A DNA stretch of 64,000 nucleotides from Acidobacteriota bacterium. Its GTDB lineage: Bacteria > Acidobacteriota > Thermoanaerobaculia > Multivoradales > UBA5704. The position numbers and the translations under genes were made by a program. Shown here one piece after another: positions 278-38,648 of the stretch. The notes under the pieces were generated by a model that did not search any database, was not told the DNA's origin, and saw nothing but the letters and a program-made list of their open reading frames with translations. The stretch covers positions 63,524 through 127,523 of the forward strand of contig JBKPTH010000003.1 of the NCBI GenBank assembly GCA_046765915.1, given 5' to 3'. Position 1 is the first letter of the stretch. Each line of letters begins with the position of its first letter.

Positions 278-912
278 GTCCCTGAACGCCTCCTTCGCCG
301 GACGATGGCGTCCGGCGACTCCAGGTCCGAAGATCGCGCCGCGGCGGCCGGGATGGCCGGCGGCAGGTTCAGGACTCTCGCGAGGGATTCAGGCGAGGGG
401 AGGCGCCCGCGAGCCGGAGCTGCCGAGCGTCTCGCGGCCCGGCAGGGACGCGGCGGAGACGCCGGCGGTCCGGATGCGGACCGGCGGGGCGAGCCGCGGC
501 GCCGAGGGCCGATGGGCGCCGGCCGAGCGCGCCAGGTGCAGGCAGAGCATGCAAGGATCGGCGGCGTGCCCCGGTCCCGCGGCCTCGAGGTGCGAGTCCT
601 CCTGCGGATGGCACGCCTGCGGAAAGACGAGCTTGCCGGCGGACCGCCGAAGCGCGGGCTCCAGCCCGTGATGCCCATGGCCGCCGGCGAGGGTGGCGAG
701 CTGGGCCAGCAGGAGCAGCCCGAGGACGAGCCAGGATCTCGGCCCTTGCCTGGAAGCGTAGGAAGAGGGGACAGGCATGGAACTTTCCGTCGAGCGGTGC
801 GCCATTGATAGCCGACTCTCAGGCCCGAGTCAACCGAAAAAAGAGAACCCCGGGGACCACGCGTCCCCGGGGCATGGGAGGACTCGCCGGAGGACCGGCG
901 ACTGAGAGCGGT

Positions 913-1536
913 CTAATACAGGTCGTTGATGCCGTTGCGGTCGTCGGTCTCGATGGTGGCCGGGCCGTTGTTGCAGGCCGAGACCGACGGATACATGGTG
1001 GCGCCGCTGACGCTGCTGTGGCCGAGGCCCAGCAGGTGGCCGACCTCGTGCACCATGACGCCCTCGATGTAGAACTCCGTGCCGGAGCAGGTCTCGCCGA
1101 GCGAGGCCCAGTTCCAGGCGGTGTTGGTGACGATGTCGGCGTCGGTGATGCGGTAGGTGCCGTTGCCGCGGTTCTGGTAATAGCCGGTGAAGGTGGCCGC
1201 CAGGCAGTTGCCCGTGCAGGCGCCCACGGGATCGCGGAAGTTGAGCATCGGCCGGCCGTCGCCGAGGGTGAAGCCCGAGATCGAGCCCACCGAGGCGTTG
1301 AGGCGGGTGCCGGTGCCGGCGCCGTTCCAGGCGGAGCTGGAGGTGATGGCGTTGCGCGTGCGCGTGCGGCCGAAGTCGCCGTCGGCGATGCTGGACTGGC
1401 CGCGGTTGTCGACGATGACGGTCGGCGGGCTGTCCCAGGTGCGCCGCGGGCTGAGGAGGACGTAGGCCGAGAGGCTGCCCGCGAGCAGGCAGGCGAGGAC
1501 GATGATGACGGTCGCGAACGAAGCGATTCTCTTCAT
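913..1536 (-). CDS. Secreted zinc metalloprotease, metzincin/matrixin-like (HEVGHLLGLGHS).
   Basis: 207 aa with an N-terminal signal peptide (MKRIASFATVIIVLACLLAGSLSA). It carries the HExxHxxGxxH zincin motif plus a downstream Met-turn (ATMYP). RBS GGAGAGGAGACC. Paralog of 7686..8312. Confidence 0.85.
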   Translation of the reverse strand: MKRIASFATVIIVLACLLAGSLSAYVLLSPRRTWDSPPTVIVDNRGQSSIADGDFGRTRTRNAITSSSAWNGAGTGTRLNASVGSISGFTLGDGRPMLNFRDPVGACTGNCLAATFTGYYQNRGNGTYRITDADIVTNTAWNWASLGETCSGTEFYIEGVMVHEVGHLLGLGHSSVSGATMYPSVSACNNGPATIETDDRNGINDLY

Positions 1537-1559
1537 GGTCTCTGGTCTCCTCTCCTAGC

Positions 1560-2126
1560 CTAGTTCTCGAGCACGGCGCGGCCGGCGCGGCGGGCCTCGT
1601 TGCGGATGGACGCCTTGAGCAGGTCGAGACGCATAGCCTTGACCGCAGCCATCGGCCGGCCGTCGCGCGTGATGACGCCGGCCCCCTCGTCGAGCGTCGG
1701 CACGGCGAGCTCGACGCCCGCCTTGTCACGGACGATCCGGTAGTGCCCCTGCTGATAGCCGGTGACCCGCGAGACGCCGTCCTTCTCCGGCTCGAGGTAG
1801 AGCAGGACGCGCTCGTTGGCGCGGAACTTCGGGAAGCCGTGGGCCTCCACCGTGAAGCCGTTGACCGTGCCGCCGAAGGTGCGCACGACGACGACCGACG
1901 GCGCCTCGCCGAGGATCTTCTCCTGCACCTGGACCATGGCCTCCGTGACGATGATCCGGCCGCTGGGCTCCCAGAAGGAGCTGACCTTGAGGATCTCCCC
2001 CTGCACCACGGCCGCCGAGCCGCGGATCAGCTCGCCCGGGGTCATTCTGAGGAACGTAGAGGCTCCCCCTGGAGTGGCCGCCGCCACGACGAGCAGCAGG
2101 ATGCCGATCGACACCAGACGCTTCAT
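1560..2126 (-). CDS. Secreted hypothetical protein, metzincin-associated partner (copy 1). Paralog of 7099..7659.
   Basis: Internal start MKRLVSIGILLLVVAAATPGGAST (signal peptide), preceded by GACAAGGAGGTCCGC-ATG. 188 aa. Shared motifs with 7099..7659: VQG..LKVSSFWE, VRTFGGTVNGFTVEAHGFPKF, VTGYQQG.YRI.RDKAG. It lies immediately upstream of the metzincin in an operon-like arrangement. No known domain recognised. Confidence 0.7.
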   Translation of the reverse strand: MKRLVSIGILLLVVAAATPGGASTFLRMTPGELIRGSAAVVQGEILKVSSFWEPSGRIIVTEAMVQVQEKILGEAPSVVVVRTFGGTVNGFTVEAHGFPKFRANERVLLYLEPEKDGVSRVTGYQQGHYRIVRDKAGVELAVPTLDEGAGVITRDGRPMAAVKAMRLDLLKASIRNEARRAGRAVLEN

Positions 2127-2327
2127 GCGGACCTCCTTGTCTTCCAGACGACCGCCACCAGCGGCGGTCGGATTGAACACCAGGACGTTGTGCCCCAGGA
2201 CACTGCGCGTGGGCCTCACTAGTATCGGTACTCGAACCCCTGCGAAAGGAGACAAAAGTCGATGAAGCGGAGCGGAGGAAACGAGGAGCGGGGCGGCCGT
2301 GGTGGCCGCCCCGGGTTCTGGGCCTGA

Positions 2328-3956
2328 CTAGATGCAGCCCGGCTGCTTGAAGCTGCCGATGCGGGTCTTGAAGTCGAAGCTGCCGTTGTTGGCGTAATAC
2401 TCGGTGGTGTACCAGAAGGTGCAGCCGTCCGACGGATCGACGCTCATCGACGAGTAGTCGCCCCAGCGGTTGCTCGAGCTCTGCTGCACGCCGGCGCCGG
2501 CCTGCAGGGTCACCTCGGAGCCCACGGTGCCGAGCGGATCGCCAGCCGCCCGCGTGACGTAGCGGATCGAGGGTTTGACCTGCCGGCTCGACACGCTGTA
2601 GCCGACGGCGATGTTGCCCTGCTTGTCCTGGGCGATGCTGCCCGTCCAGCGGCTGTCGCCGGTCGGAGAAATGGTGCCGCTCTGCTGAAGGGTCCAGCCG
2701 CTGCCGCTGTTGCGCAGCTCGGCCCAGCGGACGCCGGCGACGTTGTGGCCGTTGACGTCGACCGTGTGATTGATCAGCAGGCTCTGGTAGCTGGGGAAGT
2801 TGCGGTACATGGCGCGGTACATGGTGAACTGGCCGATGGGATCCAACCGCTCGCCGGGCGAGGGCTGGACGATGCAGCCGCGGCTGAAGTTGCACAGGTT
2901 GGCGTCGAACTCAGCCGTGTTGACCTGCGGCAGCGCGGTGAACGTCGAGCTGCTCGGGGTCGTCCAATTGACGGCGAAGTTGAACATCCGGTAGCCGTCC
3001 GGTCCGGCGCCGGTGCCCCAGGTCTCGTCGTCCCAGGACTGGATGAACGGATTGGGCGCGCCCGCGGGCGGCGCCGTGCCGCCGTCGAAGTGCGCCGGCT
3101 GCATGCTGAAGTAGCACTCGGTGCCGCAGGTCAGGGGGCCGAACTTGACCATCTGCGCCGAGAGGCCGCTGAGCATCCGGCTGCGCTCGAAGGCCACGGC
3201 GATGACGCCCTCGAAGCTGCTGGCGAACTGGTTGGCGGTGATGTAATAGCCGTCCGGCCAGACGCCCATCTTCGGGTAATCGTTGAATTTGCCCGGGCTG
3301 ACCACGAAGTCGTAGCGGTAGAACGAGCCGGCCGGATTGCCGCTGGTCGACACCGCGACGCACTGGTGGCCGTCGGGGCCGCTGACGGCGAACTGGCTGA
3401 TCACCCAGCGGTCCGCCGCGTCGTCGTAGAGCACCGTGGGATCACCGTTGTTGAAGGTCTCGCAATCGCCGCCGAAGCCGGCCCACAGGTTGTTGATCTT
3501 CACCGGCCCGAAGGTCCGGACGCCTGCCTTGTTGTAGACCGCGTAGATGAGGTTGATCGTCTGCACGATGTCGCTCGGGCCGACGTCGAGGTTGGTATCG
3601 GGGGGCACGACCCGGCCGCCGACGACGACCGCGTTGTCGTCGTCGCTCAGCCCTTCGAAGCTGGCGCTCGGCGTGGGCGTAGCGCCGATGATGGGACCGT
3701 TGGCCAGCGGATCCGGAAGAGCGTCGTTGCCATGGTGCCGCTGCGCGAGGTCCGGCACCCGGTTGACGATCTCCCGGTTGGGTTGCGTCGCCGCGGCCTT
3801 GAGCGGCAGGAGCGCCAGCTCGGTGAACGGCGGCGAAACGTCGTGCCGGATGGCCTTGGACACCTGAGGCCGCAGGTCCGGGAAGTCCCCGGCTCGCAGC
3901 ACGCAGGGCGCGAACAGGACCACCAGACACAGGATGGCGGGAAGCGTTCTTCTCAT
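2328..3956 (-). CDS. Large secreted hypothetical protein (542 aa), possibly beta-propeller-like.
   Basis: Start MRRTLPAILCLVVLFAPCVLRAG (signal peptide) with RBS AGGAGAAAA. The ORF-track entry 2328..4100 has a longer, implausible N-terminus. No confident family assignment. Confidence 0.7.
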   Translation of the reverse strand: MRRTLPAILCLVVLFAPCVLRAGDFPDLRPQVSKAIRHDVSPPFTELALLPLKAAATQPNREIVNRVPDLAQRHHGNDALPDPLANGPIIGATPTPSASFEGLSDDDNAVVVGGRVVPPDTNLDVGPSDIVQTINLIYAVYNKAGVRTFGPVKINNLWAGFGGDCETFNNGDPTVLYDDAADRWVISQFAVSGPDGHQCVAVSTSGNPAGSFYRYDFVVSPGKFNDYPKMGVWPDGYYITANQFASSFEGVIAVAFERSRMLSGLSAQMVKFGPLTCGTECYFSMQPAHFDGGTAPPAGAPNPFIQSWDDETWGTGAGPDGYRMFNFAVNWTTPSSSTFTALPQVNTAEFDANLCNFSRGCIVQPSPGERLDPIGQFTMYRAMYRNFPSYQSLLINHTVDVNGHNVAGVRWAELRNSGSGWTLQQSGTISPTGDSRWTGSIAQDKQGNIAVGYSVSSRQVKPSIRYVTRAAGDPLGTVGSEVTLQAGAGVQQSSSNRWGDYSSMSVDPSDGCTFWYTTEYYANNGSFDFKTRIGSFKQPGCI

Positions 3957-4108
3957 CAATTTTTCTCCTTGCCTCCGGGGGCGGTATGGCGAGAAACGCG
4001 GCACGGTCGTACCTCTGCCGTCCCGCAGAATCGCAGATGTGCGCTGCTCTCCCTCAGCCCACCATCCCCTGATCTGGCTCTCTTTTTCTTGGGGGCTCAA
4101 CTAGTAAG

Positions 4109-5131
4109 GTGCTCAAGGCTCGACATTGCGAGACAGATTTTGCGAGCTACAATGCCGCTATGACCGTGCCTGCCCTTCGGGGGCCGCTTCTGACGATTCT
4201 GCTGTCGCTGTTTCTCGCCGCGGCGCCCGCCGCCGGCTGCTCGATCTGCCGCTGCGGCGATCCCACCTTCAACGCCCTCGGCACGGACGTCTACAAGGAC
4301 GGCGCCTTCCGCGTCTTCCTCGACTGGGAGCGCTTCGACAAGGAGCAGGGGAGCGCCGGCGAGGAGATCCTCGAGATCGCCAAGCACGAAGGGCACGAGC
4401 ATGGCGCGGCGCGCGAAGCCGTGGTCGAGAATCGCTTCACGACGTCGCTCTCCTACAGCTTCGGCGAGCGGGCGATCGGCGTCGCCCGTCTGCCGTGGAG
4501 CTCCCGCCGCCTCAGCGAGGAAGGGGAAGGCGGCGCCAGCGAGACCACCCGGGACCTCGCCGATCCGGAGATCTATGCCCTGGTGCGGCTATGGTCCTCG
4601 AAGTTCGCGCCGGACCTCGGCCGGCGCGCCTGGCTCTCCGCCCTCGGCGGCGTCAAGACGGACTGGGGGAAGAACGATCTCGAGCAAGGCGGGGAGAGGC
4701 TCGACGAGCACCTGCAGGCCGGCACCGGCTCGACCGACTGGTTCGGCGGCCTCTCCGGGCTCTACCTGCTCGACGCGCGCTCGGCGCTGTTCTCGTCCGT
4801 GCAAGTCCGCAAGACAGGCGCGAACGACTTCGGTTACGAGTACGGCGACCTGACGCTGGCCAACCTCGGCTACGAGCACAAGTTCTCCCAGCTCGCCGAC
4901 GGCGCGCTGGAGCTCAACTATCGCGACGCCGGAAGGGACCGCATCGACGCCGCCGGCACCCTGGACCCGAACACCGGCGGCGCCGTGCTCTACGTGACGC
5001 CGCGCCTGATCTTCGATCTCGGCCGCGGGCTCGTCGGCCGGCTGGCGGTGCAGGTCCCCGTCTACCGCGACCTCAACGGCGAGCAGACCGAGAAGGCGGT
5101 GGCGAACGTGGGCCTGACGTATCTGTTCTGA
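4109..5131 (+). CDS. Outer-membrane beta-barrel protein (C-terminal ...GLTYLF); alternative start at 4160.
   Basis: The signal peptide begins at MTVPALRGPLLTILLSLFLAAAPAAG (ATG 4160). The mature N-terminus has CSICRCGDP. Alternating amphipathic strands and a terminal aromatic F are typical of OM beta-barrels. A 64-nt copy of the 3' end is present at 45964..46027. Confidence 0.7.
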   Translation: MLKARHCETDFASYNAAMTVPALRGPLLTILLSLFLAAAPAAGCSICRCGDPTFNALGTDVYKDGAFRVFLDWERFDKEQGSAGEEILEIAKHEGHEHGAAREAVVENRFTTSLSYSFGERAIGVARLPWSSRRLSEEGEGGASETTRDLADPEIYALVRLWSSKFAPDLGRRAWLSALGGVKTDWGKNDLEQGGERLDEHLQAGTGSTDWFGGLSGLYLLDARSALFSSVQVRKTGANDFGYEYGDLTLANLGYEHKFSQLADGALELNYRDAGRDRIDAAGTLDPNTGGAVLYVTPRLIFDLGRGLVGRLAVQVPVYRDLNGEQTEKAVANVGLTYLF

Positions 5132-5238
5132 GCTCGCTTGACTCGCGGGGAGTGACTGTTTACCATGCCCGCGGTTCGAAGCATCCTGGCGCGATGAAAA
5201 AGCTTTCACTACGCTCGTCTCTGATCTGACCGCTGACA

Positions 5239-5308
5239 CCCTCTCCCGCCCGGCGTTTCGGGCGGGATTTAACCATGGATCCTCGACTCGGGGAGACAAG
5301 GAGGTTGC
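5239..5308 (+). promoter_or_regulatory. Conserved 5' leader module with a GC hairpin (CCCGCCCG-gcgttt-CGGGCGGG, 5245..5266) followed by the GACAAGGAGGT RBS. Shared with 7025..7098.
   Basis: ~85% nucleotide identity with 7025..7150, extending into the first ~50 nt of both CDSs (MKRLICFGVIALVLSA vs MKRIVWLGVIALLLAA). The hairpin is retained via a compensatory wobble in copy B. Confidence 0.6.
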
Positions 5309-6901
5309 ATGAAGCGTCTCATCTGCTTCGGTGTGATCGCGTTGGTCCTGTCGGCGGTTCCGGGCTTCGCCGCCCCGGTAGCTCTCGAAGACATCTTCGC
5401 GGCGGCGCCGCAGGCCATGCCGGAGACCGTCGGCACGCCGCGGGATTCGGGCGCCCACGCCGCTGAGATGCGGGAGCTGCAGAAGCGGCTGGCCGCGAGC
5501 CAGGTCGGCCAGGCGTTGCGCCAGGAGATCGTCGTCTCGCTGAGCGGCGCCGAGCGCAAGCAGGTCGACGAGCCCAGCGACCGCAACGGCAAGTACCTGG
5601 TGGGCGTGGCCAAGTCGGCCGGCGTGACGGTCGACTTCTCGCCCGTGCGCGGTGACCGCGAGGTCAACCTGGCGGCCGGCGCCGCCCGCAGCAGCGCCAA
5701 GGGCGGCTTCGTGTGGACGGCCTCGGTGCACTCGCCGGGCGCCACGGCGTTGCGCGTGCATCTCACCGGCCTCGATCTGCCGGAGGGCAGCGAGCTCTAC
5801 GTCTACAACCGCGACGGCCAGGCCTTCGGCCCCTATACCAAGCGCGGTCCCCTTGGCGACGGCGACCTCTACACCAATACCGTCTTCGGCGACACGCTGA
5901 TGCTGCAGCTCCATCATCCCGAGGGCGCCGAGCGGGCTCCGTCGCCGCTGCGCATCGAGAGCGTCGGCGTCATGGGCAAGCGCTTCCTGGCGCCGCGCTA
6001 CGGCCCGAACGGCGCTTTCGACATCAACAACCTCGAAGCGCTCTCCAAGGCCAGCAACCTCTGCGCGACCAACGCCAACTGCGTGGTCAACGCGGCGTGC
6101 ACGTCGAGCGCCGCCGTCAACACGGCCAAGGACGCGGTGGCCAGCATCCTGTTCCAATCGGGAGCCAACTTCTACATCTGCACCGGCGGCCTGATCGCGG
6201 ACAACGTAACCACCTCGGTGATCCCCCTCTTCCTTACCGCCCATCACTGCATCAGCAGCAGCGGCGAGGCCTCCAGCCTGGAGACCTACTTCGACTACCA
6301 GACCACGTGCAGCAACCCCAACTGCACGCAGCCCTACAACAACACGGGCGAGACGGTGGGCGCCACCATCAAGGCCACCAACTCTTCCAGCGATTACTCG
6401 CTGGTGCAGCTCTCGTCGACGCCGGTGACGCCCGACGGCGTCGCCGCCTACCTCGGCTGGCTGAGCACGGCGGTGGCCAACACCAACAACTACGCGCTCT
6501 ACCGCATCAGCCATCCCAAGGGCTCGCCCCAGGCCTACACCGAGGGCGTGGTCGACACCAACAAGCCCACCTGCCGCTCCTTGCCGCGCGGCAGCTTCAT
6601 CTACAGCCGGGACACCCTGGGTGCGACGGAAGGCGGCAGCAGCGGCTCGCCGGTGGTCAACAGCTCCGGCCAGATCGTCGGCCAGCTCTACGGCGCCTGC
6701 GGCACCAACCTCAACGACGTCTGCGACGCGGCGAACAACGCCACGGTCGACGGCGCCTTCGCGGCCAGCTATCCCGCCCTGGCGCCCTTCCTGAGCCCGG
6801 GCGGCGGCGGCTGCGGCGCGGCGGGCTCGAGCTGCACCAGCAACAGCCAGTGCTGCTCCAACAGTTGCAAGGGCAAGCCGGGATCGCAGACCTGCAAGTG
6901 A
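5309..6901 (+). CDS. Secreted S1-family (trypsin/lysyl-endopeptidase-like) serine protease with a C-terminal Cys-rich tail.
   Basis: 530 aa with a signal peptide. Catalytic His context LTAHHC and Ser context GGSSGSPVV. C-terminal CGAAGSSCTSNSQCCSNSCKGKPGSQTCK (6 Cys in 30 aa). Strong RBS GACAAGGAGGT. Confidence 0.85.
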   Translation: MKRLICFGVIALVLSAVPGFAAPVALEDIFAAAPQAMPETVGTPRDSGAHAAEMRELQKRLAASQVGQALRQEIVVSLSGAERKQVDEPSDRNGKYLVGVAKSAGVTVDFSPVRGDREVNLAAGAARSSAKGGFVWTASVHSPGATALRVHLTGLDLPEGSELYVYNRDGQAFGPYTKRGPLGDGDLYTNTVFGDTLMLQLHHPEGAERAPSPLRIESVGVMGKRFLAPRYGPNGAFDINNLEALSKASNLCATNANCVVNAACTSSAAVNTAKDAVASILFQSGANFYICTGGLIADNVTTSVIPLFLTAHHCISSSGEASSLETYFDYQTTCSNPNCTQPYNNTGETVGATIKATNSSSDYSLVQLSSTPVTPDGVAAYLGWLSTAVANTNNYALYRISHPKGSPQAYTEGVVDTNKPTCRSLPRGSFIYSRDTLGATEGGSSGSPVVNSSGQIVGQLYGACGTNLNDVCDAANNATVDGAFAASYPALAPFLSPGGGGCGAAGSSCTSNSQCCSNSCKGKPGSQTCK

Positions 6902-6929
6902 GCTGAGCATTTCCTTGCTGCAAGAGAAA

Positions 6930-6956
6930 GGGGCCTGCGGGCCCCTTTTCCTTTTT
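6930..6956 (+). terminator. Rho-independent terminator (GGGGCC-tgcg-GGCCCC + TTTTCCTTTTT).
   Basis: Perfect 6-bp GC stem followed by a T-tract, 30 nt after the protease stop. Confidence 0.8.
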
Positions 6957-7024
6957 CGCGTTTCCCAGTGACACGGATGAGCACTTCCGCGCACCTTTAA
7001 GATTGGTGCTCCTTGAACAGGCCT

Positions 7025-7098
7025 ACCCTCTCCCGTCCGGCCGTTCGGGCGGGATGAACCCATGAATCCCCGCTAGCGGGGAGACAAGGAGGTTTTTC
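7025..7098 (+). promoter_or_regulatory. Second copy of the conserved leader module (hairpin 7031..7052, CCCGTCCG-gccgtt-CGGGCGGG) plus the GACAAGGAGGT RBS.
   Basis: See 5239..5308. The identity continues into the signal-peptide coding region of 7099..7659. Confidence 0.6.
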
Positions 7099-7659
7099 AT
7101 GAAGCGTATCGTCTGGTTGGGTGTGATCGCGTTGCTGCTGGCGGCGATCCCGGCGGCGGCTTCGACCTTCATCGCGCTGAGCCACGCCGAGCTCGTGGCC
7201 GGGTCGGACGCGATCGTCCAGGGGAGGGTGCTGAAGGTGAGCTCGTTCTGGGAGAAGACCGGCCGCGTCATCGTCAGCGAGGCGATGGTGCAGGTCGAGG
7301 AGGTGGTCAAGGGCGCGGCACCGAGCGTGGTGATCGTGCGCACCTTCGGCGGCACCGTCAACGGCTTCACGGTGGAGGCCCACGGCTTTCCGAAGTTCGC
7401 CGTCAACGATCACGTCCTGCTCTATCTGCACGGCGCCGAGGGCACGGCCGAGGTGACCGGCTATCAGCAGGGCCAGTACCGCATCGCCCGCGACAAGGCG
7501 GGCAACGCGATGGCGGTGCCGTCCGTGGACGGCGGCGCCTTCCTGGTCGGCCGCGACGGCCGGCCGGCTCCCGGGGCCAAGGCCATGCGGCTCGAAACCC
7601 TCAAGAACTTGATCCGCGCCGAGGCCGCGAAGCCTGAAACCGGCCGCATCGCCAACTAG
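7099..7659 (+). CDS. Secreted hypothetical protein, metzincin-associated partner (copy 2).
   Basis: 186 aa with a signal peptide. Paralog of 1560..2126 (~60% identity by eye). Located directly upstream of metzincin 7686..8312. Confidence 0.75.
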   Translation: MKRIVWLGVIALLLAAIPAAASTFIALSHAELVAGSDAIVQGRVLKVSSFWEKTGRVIVSEAMVQVEEVVKGAAPSVVIVRTFGGTVNGFTVEAHGFPKFAVNDHVLLYLHGAEGTAEVTGYQQGQYRIARDKAGNAMAVPSVDGGAFLVGRDGRPAPGAKAMRLETLKNLIRAEAAKPETGRIAN

Positions 7660-7685
7660 CTCTTCCGGAGAGGTGAGATAAAACC

Positions 7686-8312
7686 ATGATGAATCGCAAG
7701 TCTTCCGTCACGGTCTTCATCCTTCTCGCCGTGCTCCTGGTGAGCTCGGCTTCGGCCTACGTGCTGCTCAGCCCGCGGCGCACCTGGGACGGCGTCGTCA
7801 ACATCACCGTCGACAACCGCGGCAACTCCAGCATCACCGACGTCGACGGCGGTGCCACCGCGGTGGTCACCGCCATCACCGCCAACGCCGCCTGGAACGG
7901 CGCCGGCACCGGCACTCGCGTCTCCGCCCAGAAGGGGTCGGTCGCGGGCTTCCAACTCGGCGACCGCATCGTCATGCTCAACTTCCAGGATCCCGTCCAT
8001 GCCTGCAACGGCTCCTGCCTGGCGGCCACCTTCACCGGCTACTACGAGCCGCGTGGCGACGGCACGAACCGCATCTACGACGCCGACATCGTGACCAACA
8101 AGAGGAATCCCCTCACGTCGACGCTCGAGCCGGACGGCTGCTCCGGCGAGTACTATGTCGAGGGCATCATGGTGCACGAGGTGGGGCACGTGCTGGGCCT
8201 CGCCCACACCACCGTCACCGGCGCCACGATGTACCCCTCGGTCTCGGCCTGCAACAACAATCCCGCCAGCACCGAGGCGGACGACCGCGCCGGCATCAAC
8301 GACCTGTACTAG
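7686..8312 (+). CDS. Secreted zinc metalloprotease, metzincin-like (HEVGHVLGLAHT). Paralog of 913..1536.
   Basis: 208 aa with a signal peptide, the HExxHxxGxxH motif and a conserved ATMYPSVSACNN...DDRAGINDLY C-terminus. RBS GGAGAGGTGAGA. Confidence 0.85.
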   Translation: MMNRKSSVTVFILLAVLLVSSASAYVLLSPRRTWDGVVNITVDNRGNSSITDVDGGATAVVTAITANAAWNGAGTGTRVSAQKGSVAGFQLGDRIVMLNFQDPVHACNGSCLAATFTGYYEPRGDGTNRIYDADIVTNKRNPLTSTLEPDGCSGEYYVEGIMVHEVGHVLGLAHTTVTGATMYPSVSACNNNPASTEADDRAGINDLY

Positions 8313-8337
8313 CCGCAAGCCGTATCGCGAAGATCGG

Positions 8338-8369
8338 GACCCTCCTGGCGAGGGTCCCTTTTCTTTTCT
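8338..8369 (+). terminator. Rho-independent terminator (GGGACCCTC-ctggc-GAGGGTCCC + TTTTCTTTTCT).
   Basis: 9-bp stem followed by a T-tract, downstream of metzincin copy 2. Confidence 0.8.
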
Positions 8370-8463
8370 GCGGTCGGACCTGTCTCGTTCCATGGGCCAG
8401 CCACACTAGAGGAATTGAGCCTGGAGTGATGCAGCGCCAGGAGATCATGGAAAGGAGTCGCTG

Positions 8464-8807: not shown

Positions 8808-9605
8808 ATGATCTCGAAGCGAGCCGTTTTCTGGATGATCCTGGCGCTGGCGTCGCTGCCGGCCTTGGCGCACGACACCTGGCTGCTGGCCCGGAGCGGC
8901 GCCGTGGTGCCCGGCACCGCGGTCATCCTGGACCTGACGAGCGGCATGGCGTTCCCGGCCAACGAGACGGCGATCAAGCCCGAGCGTATCTCCCGGGCGG
9001 CCGGCCGGCTGGCGGGAGAGACTTCAGATCTCAAGGATCGGCAGACCGCCGCCAAATCCCTCGAGCTCACCGCGCGGTTGTCCAAGCCGGGCGTGGCGTC
9101 CTTGTGGGTCGAGCTGGCGCCGAAGTCGATCGACCTCACGCCGGAGCAGGTGAAGGAGTACCTCGACGAGATCGGCGCGCCCGAGGCGGTGCGGCGGGCG
9201 TGGGCCGCGATGCCGGCGCCGCGGCGCTGGCGCGAGCTGTACTCCAAGCACGCGAAAGCCTACGTGCGCGTCGGCGAGCCCGCGGACGACCGCTCCTGGG
9301 CCGAGCCCGTGGGCATGGGGCTGGAGATCGTGCCGGAGAAGGACCCGACGGCGCTGCGCCCCGGCGACGAGCTGCCTGTCCGCGTGCTGCGGAACGGCCA
9401 GCCCTTCGCCTCGTTCGCGGTCGGCCTCGTCGGCCCAGGAAACGCGCAGGGTGTTCTCAAAACGACGGACGATCAAGGGCGCGCGATCTTCCCCATTGGC
9501 AAAGCCGGCCGCTGGCTGCTGCGCGCCACCGACGTGCGGCGCTCCGCGAAGCCCGAAGCGGACTGGGAGAGCGACTTCACGACGGTGACGTTCGAGGTGC
9601 GGTGA
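8808..9605 (+). CDS. Periplasmic protein with signal peptide, DUF4198-like (family assignment tentative).
   Basis: 265 aa. Signal peptide followed by AHDTWLL... The HD-TW start of the mature protein is reminiscent of DUF4198 metal-uptake-associated proteins. Confidence 0.55.
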   Translation: MISKRAVFWMILALASLPALAHDTWLLARSGAVVPGTAVILDLTSGMAFPANETAIKPERISRAAGRLAGETSDLKDRQTAAKSLELTARLSKPGVASLWVELAPKSIDLTPEQVKEYLDEIGAPEAVRRAWAAMPAPRRWRELYSKHAKAYVRVGEPADDRSWAEPVGMGLEIVPEKDPTALRPGDELPVRVLRNGQPFASFAVGLVGPGNAQGVLKTTDDQGRAIFPIGKAGRWLLRATDVRRSAKPEADWESDFTTVTFEVR

Positions 9606-10427: not shown

Positions 10428-10824
10428 GCGGTCGAACGCGATCCGGCCCAGTTGGGGCAGGACCTCTACAGGCTGGAGGAGTGACAACGGCCGAAAGACA
10501 TGGAGGTGACGGACATCACACTGGCCGGTTCGTCTTCCGGCCGCGAAGCGACAAGCCGACGGGCGGCTGCGCGTTCCGGAAAGCGGCCAGGTATTCCGTC
10601 TGGATGGAGAGCGGCGGCTCGGCGAGCTGCGCAGCAAGGCCTGAGAAATGTTTTTCGGCTACCGTAGTCGGTGGCGCCTTCCCGCCGCATCAGCTTCAGC
10701 TTGAGCGCCATTCCAGACGCAGGGCGCGTCTCAGAAGTTGCTCTCTGGTTGCCGCGCTTTCGGCCAGGGCCGCCATCACAACTGATAGTACGCCGGCTTG
10801 GGAGGGTGAGCCGGTAAGAGGCTT

Positions 10825-11070
10825 CAACCCGTCAGTTGGACTCTCCAACCCGCCGGTTGCGCTCTCCAACTCGCCAGTTGAGATCTCCAACCCGTCGGTT
10901 GCGCTCTCCAACCGGCCAGTTGGACTCTCCAACCCGCCGGTTGGGCTCTCCAACTCGGCGGTTGCGCTCTCCAACCCGCCGGTTGGGCTCTCCAATCCGC
11001 CGGTTGGACGGCTCAACTCGCCGGTTGGAAGCCCCAACTACTCAGTTGAAGAGTCCAACTCGCGAGTTGC
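10825..11070. repeat. 21-bp tandem repeat array, ~11.5 copies (consensus CCGCCGGTTG[CG]GCTCTCCAAC).
   Basis: Direct reading: ccgtcagttggactctccaac / ccgccggttgcgctctccaac / tcgccagttgagatctccaac ... with progressive degeneration toward the 3' end. Period 21 = 7 codons. It encodes SPTRRLR heptads on the + strand and LESPTGG heptads on the - strand. Confidence 0.9.
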
Positions 11071-28730: not shown

Positions 28731-29288
28731 CTACACGCGGATGAACTCGTAGCCGCTGCGGTCGGCGGCCACCGGCGGCCGGCGCCCGTTGCCGTTGCCG
28801 GCGGGCGCGGCGCCGTTCTCCTGGGCGGCGACGGTGGGCCGGCGGAGCTGCTCCTGGCCGAACAGGCGCCGCAGGAACTTCATCGCCTCCTCCTCCACCA
28901 TCTCGGCGTCGAGCCGCTCGACGGACACCTTGGTGGAGAGCAGGCTGAAGCCGATGCCCTCGTGCATGATCTTCACCATCTGCGTCGCGTCGTCGCCGAA
29001 GAAGAGGAGCGAGCGCTCGTAGTCCTCCCAGCGGTCGAGCTTCACCTTGAGGCCCGCCGCGGTCGAGCGGTGGAAGATGGAAGCGGACTCGACCTTGCCC
29101 ACCATCACGTCCTTGATCTCCTCCAGGATGGGCATGATGACGGAGCGCGCGACGCGGCTGAACTGCTCGCGGAAGGGATCGTTCTGGCGCAGGATCTCCT
29201 CGGGACGGGTGCGCTTCTCCTCGATGATCTCCTCGTGACCCTTGAGCAGGATCTGCAGCCGCTCGAGATTGGATTTGGTCAGGTGCAC
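28731..29288 (-). CDS. Hypothetical cytoplasmic protein (185 aa, GTG start).
   Basis: AAAGGAACCACCC-GTG. No recognised domain. Confidence 0.5.
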   Translation of the reverse strand: MHLTKSNLERLQILLKGHEEIIEEKRTRPEEILRQNDPFREQFSRVARSVIMPILEEIKDVMVGKVESASIFHRSTAAGLKVKLDRWEDYERSLLFFGDDATQMVKIMHEGIGFSLLSTKVSVERLDAEMVEEEAMKFLRRLFGQEQLRRPTVAAQENGAAPAGNGNGRRPPVAADRSGYEFIRV

Positions 29289-29419
29289 GGGTGGTTCCTT
29301 TCTCGTCCGCCGGAGTGGTGGTGTTCCGGTGACGATCGGGTGTGCGAAGAGCGTGCCAGAGGGCGGGCAGAATCCGATCCCATCAGCTTCATGAATCCGG
29401 CCGGTGTCCGCGCCGCCGG

Positions 29420-35339: not shown

Positions 35340-35421
35340 CCCGCCGGCGCCGACGACGCTGCAACCATCGTGAACGGCCGGATCGGAGCAACCCAGGCCC
35401 CTGCGATACACTCCCCTCCCA

Positions 35422-38648
<3,227 letters not shown>

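Follow-up and report, generated by a model that had tools for sequence, protein, structure and literature searches.

Bacterial proteases with operon-encoded inhibitors are already known from the AprI/Inh proteins and the potempins, and a single Listeria pair of a metzincin with a protein resembling the animal tissue inhibitors of metalloproteinases (TIMPs) has been described. In Tannerella forsythia, the open reading frame (ORF) of each potempin directly precedes the gene for the KLIKK peptidase that its product inhibits and is transcribed together with it, and the potempin PotA, which has an OB fold, inhibits the bacterial matrix metalloproteinase (MMP) karilysin (PMC9890683). AprI and the TIMPs share a similar mode of binding on metzincins (PMC8235301). 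The Mtz-Tim pair of Listeria monocytogenes is of phage origin and resides in Gram-positive hosts, its metzincin is not reported as a matrixin, and the similarity of Tim to TIMPs amounts to ~60% Phyre2 confidence; the authors of that 2021 report found no literature record of bacterial TIMP-like proteins (PMC8235301). TIMPs go unmentioned in a 2025 study on the horizontal transfer of MMPs, and in the searchable literature we found no description of the protein family that is the subject here, or of TIMP-fold partners of bacterial matrixins. We analyzed a 64,000-nucleotide stretch of an Acidobacteriota genome of the class Thermoanaerobaculia (assembly GCA_046765915.1, contig JBKPTH010000003.1, positions 63,524 to 127,523), referred to as the window. 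It contains two inverted, paralogous two-gene cassettes, at 913–2126 on the minus strand and 7099–8312 on the plus strand, each encoding a small secreted partner protein and then an M10 matrixin. We consider it probable, at roughly 60%, that the partner is a cognate binding regulator of the matrixin, most likely its inhibitor or a trans-acting prodomain.

In function, the nearest precedent is the potempin system of Tannerella. As with the potempins, the window partner is encoded by the ORF immediately 5' of the peptidase gene, with gaps of 23 nt in the left cassette and 26 nt in the right cassette. The potempins, however, carry a lipobox and are outer-membrane lipoproteins, whereas the signal peptide of the window partner ends in AxA/STF and offers no Cys. 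The serralysin inhibitors AprI/Inh (MEROPS I38) are likewise periplasmic, Sec-exported, and encoded beside an M10 metzincin, but their target is an M10B serralysin that is type I secreted, and their eight-stranded up-and-down β-barrel of ~105 aa is not the fold of the window partner. Listeria Mtz-Tim is also a conserved bacterial pair of a secreted metzincin and a TIMP-like protein. Compared by description only, its order is mtz then tim, whereas in the window the partner comes first and has no lipobox; a tblastn search of the partner against phage genomes for Listeria-type mtz-tim pairs returned only chance matches (E ~0.9).

The order of partner gene and then matrixin gene on the same strand is retained in 77 of 77 distinct cassettes (those with enough downstream DNA, drawn from 64 species-representative genome loci and from metagenome contigs), which sit in many unrelated neighborhoods. 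The hosts are nearly all Thermoanaerobaculia/Acidobacteriota, with single loci from Woeseiaceae and Myxococcota, and two of the assemblies (L016 and L010) have partners 96% identical to that of the window. A metagenome scan extended this to a distant, Myxococcota-centered clade, where an HExxHxxGxx[HD] ORF lies just 3' of the partner gene, on the same strand, in 50 of the 53 loci with at least 700 nt downstream. The co-occurrence of the two genes, which an earlier note on this DNA had seen in the window alone, is therefore found in other genomes as well, and the pairing is retained in soil Acidobacteriota and in Myxococcota. Partner and matrixin diverge together, as the correlation between their pairwise identities shows (mirror-tree r = 0.69, Mantel p = 0.001), and for the left and the right copy in the window, much the same nearest neighbors are obtained with either protein, so that the cassette is inherited as a unit. 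In Corallococcus sp. EGB (CP079946; locus L080, 5001–7446), a partner homolog directly precedes two genes for MYXO-CTERM metalloproteases of the MXAN_2677/MXAN_2678 type (NF041905, myxosortase-dependent), whose start its stop codon overlaps. The proteases of that Myxococcota family are ~300 aa long, carry a MYXO-CTERM surface-sorting tail and have the motif HExxHxxGxxD, whereas the window enzymes score only 43–47 bits against the family cut-off of 250. Corallococcus sp. EGB also provides a cultured, genetically tractable host in which the partner family could be tested.

The second gene of each cassette encodes a matrixin. Against Pfam PF00413, for which the cut-off is 24 bits, the two products score 54.6 and 47.7 bits, which refines the HExxHxxGxxH metzincin of the earlier note to an M10 matrixin in both copies. 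Their best sequence matches in the PDB are MMP-1, MMP-8, MMP-12, and karilysin. The zinc-site motif, HExxHxxGxxH with Ser/Thr after the third His, reads HEVGHLLGLGHS in the left enzyme and HEVGHVLGLAHT in the right one and is followed by the Met-turn ATMYP; the zinc-site and Met-turn columns are invariant in 50 homologs. A model of the right matrixin has the MMP catalytic-domain fold, with MMP-2, -9, -20, and -12 as its best structural matches. In the left matrixin, the signal peptide is directly succeeded by the catalytic domain, which runs from YVLLSPRRTWD through HEVGHLLGLGHS and ATMYP to DDRNGINDLY. Across the family, YVLLSP directly follows the signal peptide in 67 of the 77 cassettes, and the chain ends in DDxxGIxxLY. 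In activated MMPs, the mature N-terminus has the form F/Y-x-x-x-P-x-x-x-K/R-W and the catalytic domain ends with helix C. We take the YVLLSPRRTWD start and the DDxxGINDLY end of the matrixin to be this mature N-terminus and the end of helix C. Neither a prodomain nor a cysteine switch (PRCGxPD) is present in the window matrixins, which at 207–208 aa are bare catalytic domains, and removal of the signal peptide should therefore give an enzyme that is already "activated".

The partner has no match in Pfam, NCBIfam, or the PDB sequences, either as a single sequence or as a 56-member family profile, in agreement with the earlier note, which had recognized no family. Its homologs form 402 clusters at 90% identity, are ~185 aa long, are all annotated as "hypothetical protein", and come from Thermoanaerobaculia metagenome-assembled genomes. 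When 1.84 billion cluster representatives (50% identity) were searched by profile, 11,665 relatives scored at E ≤ 1e-3, of which 3,033 also reached E ≤ 1e-10. The invariant blocks of the family alignment are the predicted mature N-terminus A/S-T-F, SSFW, RTFGG...EAHGFP, and GYQQG, and the motifs that the earlier note had singled out, VSSFWE and VRTFGGTVNGFTVEAHGFPKF, are present and lie inside the most conserved blocks. Of the 77 cassettes, 73 have A/STF at the predicted signal-peptide cleavage site of the partner and all have Ala or Gly at position −1, and distant members retain A/[ST] at this site. Relative to the orthologs in L010, dN/dS is 0.48 for the left partner, 0.34 for the left matrixin, and 0.15 for the right partner; taken by cassette, the values are 0.13–0.15 for the right pair and 0.34–0.48 for the left pair. 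By these ratios, partner and matrixin both evolve under purifying selection.

Structure prediction, which the earlier note had proposed as a check, gave a confident AlphaFold model of the right partner (pLDDT 86.6, pTM 0.80) with a TIMP/NTR-type OB fold. Foldseek ranks NtA, TIMP-2, and TIMP-1 first, with probabilities of 0.99–1.0 and E values of 2e-3 to 1e-2. The model begins with an extended N-terminal segment (residues 23–25), followed by a helix (29–35) and a long strand (38–51), which is the known order of elements in TIMPs. The most conserved internal block of the partner (81–98) is the connector after the third strand, and in the model it would sit topologically at the C-D loop of the TIMP inhibitory ridge. 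The partner is thus, by prediction, a TIMP/NTR-fold protein outside the TIMP sequence family, sharing the NTR-type OB fold with the vertebrate TIMPs (MEROPS I35, PF00965) and with NTR modules such as agrin NtA, complement C345C, and PCOLCE NTR.

Partner and protease also occur as single chains. Three of the top 150 profile matches (P0176, P0177, and P0210) combine a signal peptide, the partner domain, a short linker, and a PF00413 domain, some with additional C-terminal immunoglobulin-like (Ig-like) domains. In these proteins the linker (...RRTAEP-FVLLSPARTW...) takes the place of the matrixin's signal peptide, so that they are genuine fusions, in which the partner sits where a prodomain would be. 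As read from their sequences, they would be zymogens in which a TIMP-fold domain serves as the prodomain. In metagenome loci, long open frames running across partner and metzincin were set aside as fusion candidates, because the two coding regions lie in different reading frames.

These observations suggest the following scheme for the cassette. The first gene would supply a Sec-exported, Cys-free mature protein of ~165 aa with a TIMP/NTR-type OB fold, and the second a Sec-exported minimal matrixin that has neither prodomain nor cysteine switch, so that both would reach the periplasm. There, removal of the signal peptide would leave the matrixin mature and hence active. The partner, translated first from the same mRNA, would bind the matrixin 1:1 and hold it latent, and the complex would be resolved on export of the enzyme, on dilution, or once the partner is degraded. 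As the likeliest mode of contact, similar to that of TIMPs, the partner's free N-terminus (Ser-Thr-Phe) and the adjacent RTFGG...EAHGFP connector may dock into the matrixin's active-site cleft. In AprI, the N-terminal residues, starting with Ser, fill the protease's active-site cleft, and TIMPs use Cys1-Thr2. We infer physical binding, inhibition, and N-terminal chelation from sequence and predicted structure; a TIMP-like N-terminal mechanism specifically is a tentative proposal, to which we give somewhat less than an even chance. The earlier note had offered three roles for the partner, as cognate inhibitor, chaperone, or substrate-recruiting subunit. Of these, the cognate inhibitor agrees best with the TIMP/NTR-like fold, with a matrixin that lacks a prodomain, and with the naturally occurring fusions; the other two rank lower.

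Several results weigh against a TIMP-like regulator. None of the 56 partner members matches Pfam TIMP or NTR even at E ≤ 10, and a comparison of the partner profile by hhalign with TIMP-1 to -4, whose sequences were entered by hand, yields a probability of 0.55%. With no sequence similarity to TIMPs detectable, the link to them holds at the fold level only, and the structural match is itself only moderate (E ~1e-3 to 1e-2, target-normalized TM ~0.5). TIMPs contain 12 Cys in six disulfides and have Cys as residue 1, whereas the mature partner, the product of a bacterial operon, contains no Cys in any of the 77 cassettes and has Ser as its predicted residue 1; Cys1 and the six disulfides of a TIMP are thus both absent. 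The signal-peptide cleavage sites, which define that residue, were placed by the (−3,−1) rule only. A subfamily of ~230 aa (L081, 5001–5705) joins the same domain to a C-terminal transmembrane helix and has no adjoining metzincin, with a 686-aa protein that lacks HExxH and a protein with an EAL domain as its neighbors, and the fold is therefore not exclusively protease-linked. Finally, Tim of L. monocytogenes is cleaved and released by Mtz and was not shown to be an inhibitor (PMC8235301).

The Listeria result bears on an alternative that casts the partner as a substrate or pro-effector cut by the matrixin, the activity residing in a released TIMP-like fragment. Indeed, in the sole bacterial pair studied, the protease cleaves the TIMP-like lipoprotein and the fragment causes phenotypes (PMC8235301). 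The window partner, however, has no lipobox or membrane anchor from which to be released, and its gene order is reversed relative to mtz-tim. In addition, the invariant feature of the partner is its extreme mature N-terminus rather than an internal site, and the fusions place the partner as the N-terminal domain of the protease, all of which makes this account quite improbable in our estimate. The position of the partner in the fusions also speaks against an OB-fold subunit that binds or targets a ligand such as polysaccharide or matrix and has no effect on catalysis. Such a domain would more usually be C-terminal, and C-terminal Ig-like and Cys-rich extensions do occur in the matrixin family, while the fused partner occupies the prodomain position. 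A targeting role would further leave the invariant free N-terminus and the missing prodomain unexplained, and we see little likelihood of it.

A third alternative makes the partner a secretion or folding chaperone, a trans foldase like a protease propeptide or like CpaB, the type II secretion (T2SS) chaperone of the Acinetobacter metzincin CpaA, with inhibition a secondary effect. MMP catalytic domains are known, from recombinant domains, to fold without their prodomains, and proteins of the TIMP/NTR fold are known as inhibitors and binders, not as folding catalysts. The two roles are not mutually exclusive; as the primary function of the partner, we consider chaperoning unlikely. An inhibitor or trans-prodomain thus remains the reading that we prefer for the partner.

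The cassette is of interest mainly because the predicted fold of the partner is shared with the inhibitor that animals use against the same family of enzymes. Should the partner inhibit the matrixin, a function would be assigned to a large unannotated family (11,665 clusters) for which neither Pfam nor NCBIfam has a model, and the latency of exported, prodomain-less bacterial MMP-type enzymes would be explained. It would also be the first case of a partner with a TIMP fold being tied genetically to true matrixins in bacteria, which bears on the origin of the animal MMP/TIMP pair, and the Cys-free TIMP-fold proteins could serve as practical scaffolds for engineering MMP inhibitors. That the partner family is truly homologous to the metazoan TIMP/NTR modules, and not convergent with them, we regard as doubtful. 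Were it homologous, the MMP-TIMP pair would have existed as a prokaryotic operon before or alongside the appearance of animals, and some lineages would have had a single zymogen with a TIMP-like prodomain. In that case, the axis of matrix remodeling in animals might have been gained, or passed on, as a module of two genes, and the disulfide-free bacterial form would be a new and easily expressed MMP-inhibitor scaffold.

The window contains two cassettes and no third copy. The inverted duplication of the gene pair described in the earlier note is present, with the ORFs where it had placed them, and its two arms, of 1214 nt each, can be aligned in inverted orientation with 76% identity across 1117 columns (E = 3e-152). 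At the protein level, the left and right copies are 61% identical for the partners and 65% for the matrixins. The earlier note had further suggested that the repeat could mediate inversion of the block between the arms. The cassettes would then be recombination arms that flip a 5-kb central block, in the manner of a phase-variation or shufflon-like switch, and it is true that the block is flanked by two 1.2-kb inverted homologous segments and that the gene content between the cassettes differs among relatives. However, at 76% identity the longest exact run common to both arms is 32 nt, and this run falls in the codons of the VNGFTVEAHGF motif. Since that motif is conserved, the arms owe their identity to protein constraint rather than to recent exchange. 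Among the ORFs scanned at 1–10.4 kb of the window, none matched a recombinase family, and the variation seen among relatives is gene gain, loss, or replacement and not inversion. The relative orientation of the cassettes in the window is kept in six related assemblies (L007, L010, L011, L012, L013, and L016), none of which shows the inversion isomer. We also compared the locus with the class of invertible segments, which have near-identical repeats or recombinase sites with a recombinase gene, and which occur in both orientations; the 76% identity, the 32-nt run, and the uniform orientation in these assemblies place it outside that class. We therefore give an inversion switch next to no chance.

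The distribution of the copies points to a different history. Left-type and right-type cassettes each have their own orthologs in other genera and genomes, which argues that the duplication is old. Some genomes hold only one type at the same M48...carB position: L008 retains the right type, in the order M48 peptidase, cassette, 184-aa gene, carB, and L015 retains the left type, which there faces the other way inside the same M48...carB frame. These single-type genomes indicate that an old duplication was followed by differential loss. Adjacent divergent cassette pairs occur in L024, L041, and L062, and tandem pairs in L065, L067, L068, and L070. The dS values of the window paralogs (0.34–0.59) are probably compressed by GC3 codon bias and were not used for dating. 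The inverted arrangement is thus an ordinary one, an old tandem-inverted pair of paralogs.

The features of the locus are collected in Table 1. By inspection, all seven products have the basic n-region, hydrophobic core, and small-x-small site of Sec-type signal peptides, where the earlier note had spoken of five proteins with signal peptides. The length of 186 aa that it gave for the partner is correct for the right copy; the left copy has 188 aa. Between the arms, the 542-aa ORF and the S1 protease with its Cys tail are both present as described.

Table 1. Features of the cassette locus, in window coordinates
Feature	Coordinates	Strand	Remarks
Terminator-like GC-rich hairpin and T-run	847–873	−	11-pair stem, tail TCTCTTTTTT; just 3' of left matrixin gene
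Left matrixin (M10A-like), 207 aa	913–1536	−	Pfam PF00413 at 1.5e-14, 54.6 bits
Left partner, 188 aa; signal peptide ...GGA/STF; Cys-free; predicted TIMP/NTR-fold family	1560–2126	−	ORF and family alignment
Predicted secreted protein, 542 aa (p542)	2328–3956	−	Co-directional with and upstream of left cassette
Putative outer-membrane protein, 340-aa ORF, likely ATG at 4160	4109–5131	+	C-terminal ...GLTYLF
Leader of S1 gene: GC-rich hairpin 5239–5268, small hairpin abutting Shine-Dalgarno AAGGAGG, then ATG	5239–5308	+	
S1 (Trypsin_2) serine protease, 530 aa	5309–6901	+	Pfam PF13365 at 1.1e-13
Terminator-like hairpin between S1 gene and right cassette	6926–6949	+	
Leader of right cassette: two hairpins and Shine-Dalgarno, layout as upstream of S1 gene	7026–7098	+	
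Right partner, 186 aa; signal peptide ...AAA/STF; Cys-free	7099–7659	+	AlphaFold model: TIMP/NTR-type OB fold
Right matrixin, 208 aa	7686–8312	+	Motif HEVGHVLGLAHT, Met-turn ATMYP
Terminator-like hairpin 3' of right matrixin gene	8336–8358	+	

As Table 1 shows, terminator-like hairpins lie 3' of the left matrixin, S1, and right matrixin genes. None lies between the partner and matrixin genes in either window cassette, and with hairpins outside and none within, each cassette has the appearance of a bicistronic operon. The p542 gene points in the same direction as the left cassette, and the genes of the putative barrel protein and the S1 protease share the direction of the right cassette and lie upstream of it, so that the locus consists of two outward-facing gene sets and not of a repeat-bounded block. 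The dedicated proteolysis island of the earlier note thus gives way to two outward-facing transcription units around a segment of variable gene content.

The leaders of the S1 gene and the right partner gene are ~83% identical. They share a GC-rich candidate hairpin, CCCGyCCGG...CGGGCGGG, and then a small candidate hairpin that abuts the Shine-Dalgarno sequence AAGGAGG, and the similarity extends into the first ~18 signal-peptide codons of both genes. The shared leader has only these two copies in the window, where none is expected by chance. The exact hairpin sequence has no copies in the fetched loci; in other genomes the upstream leader hairpin differs in sequence and keeps its pairing potential. 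Consensus RNA folding of this leader yielded just 3 pairs, because indels break up the MAFFT alignment. The presence of a shared, putatively structured 5' leader suggests that the S1 and right partner genes may be co-regulated. Elsewhere in the family, sigma-54-type promoters (TGGCAC-N5-TTGC) lie ~60–90 nt 5' of the partner start in L003, L008, L021, and L024, and in L001 (11527–15404) genes for a sigma-54 activator and a Ser/Thr kinase are found directly 3' of the cassette. No sigma-54-type motif is evident upstream of the right cassette in the window.

The segment between the cassettes is a hotspot of gene gain, loss, and replacement. The p542 gene, whose product has no match in Pfam, NCBIfam, or the PDB sequences, is present in L010, L016, and L042 and absent in L007, where neither it nor the S1 gene lies between the cassettes. 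At the position of the barrel gene, L010 and L016 have an unrelated gene for a 312-aa lipoprotein. Homologs of the barrel gene adjoin cassettes in L007, L015, L028, L031, L032, L035, and L046. Its 340-aa product has no Pfam or NCBIfam match, which leaves the outer-membrane β-barrel label of the earlier note unconfirmed. The protein carries an N-terminal CSICRCGDP motif together with HEGHEHG, a stretch rich in His, and it may be a metal-related outer-membrane protein rather than a part of the protease system. In the parts that are shared, the inter-cassette segment (2127–7098) is 89–94% identical at the nucleotide level to those of L007, L010, and L016.

The S1 protease has TAHHC and GSSGSP motifs and an N-terminal domain without an assigned function. 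It ends in a six-cysteine tail, C-x6-C-x5-CC-x3-C-x8-C (...CSNSCKGKPGSQTCK), encoded at 6800–6901, a mobile cysteine-knot-like module common to the secreted proteases of this clade. A tail of this type recurs as a ~40-aa C-terminal extension on matrixin homologs, ending in ...QTCR, ...KTCR, or ...MTCK, at nine loci (L023, L029, L039, L043, L047, L063, L070, L071, and L074).

Just 3' of the right cassette, a DUF4198 protein is encoded at 8808–9605. In relatives, the right-type cassette is followed directly by a gene for a 181–184-aa protein and by carB. The window homologs of these two genes are displaced to 28811–29310 and 35407–38620, which indicates that ~20 kb was inserted 3' of the right cassette (window 8400–35400). 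This insert includes a low-GC stretch (0.53–0.60 at 13–14 kb) and several long ORFs without a Pfam match. At 10801–10989, a tandem array with a 21-nt period lies inside overlapping long ORFs and encodes 7-residue repeats, PVGLSNx on the plus strand and GLESPTG on the minus strand.

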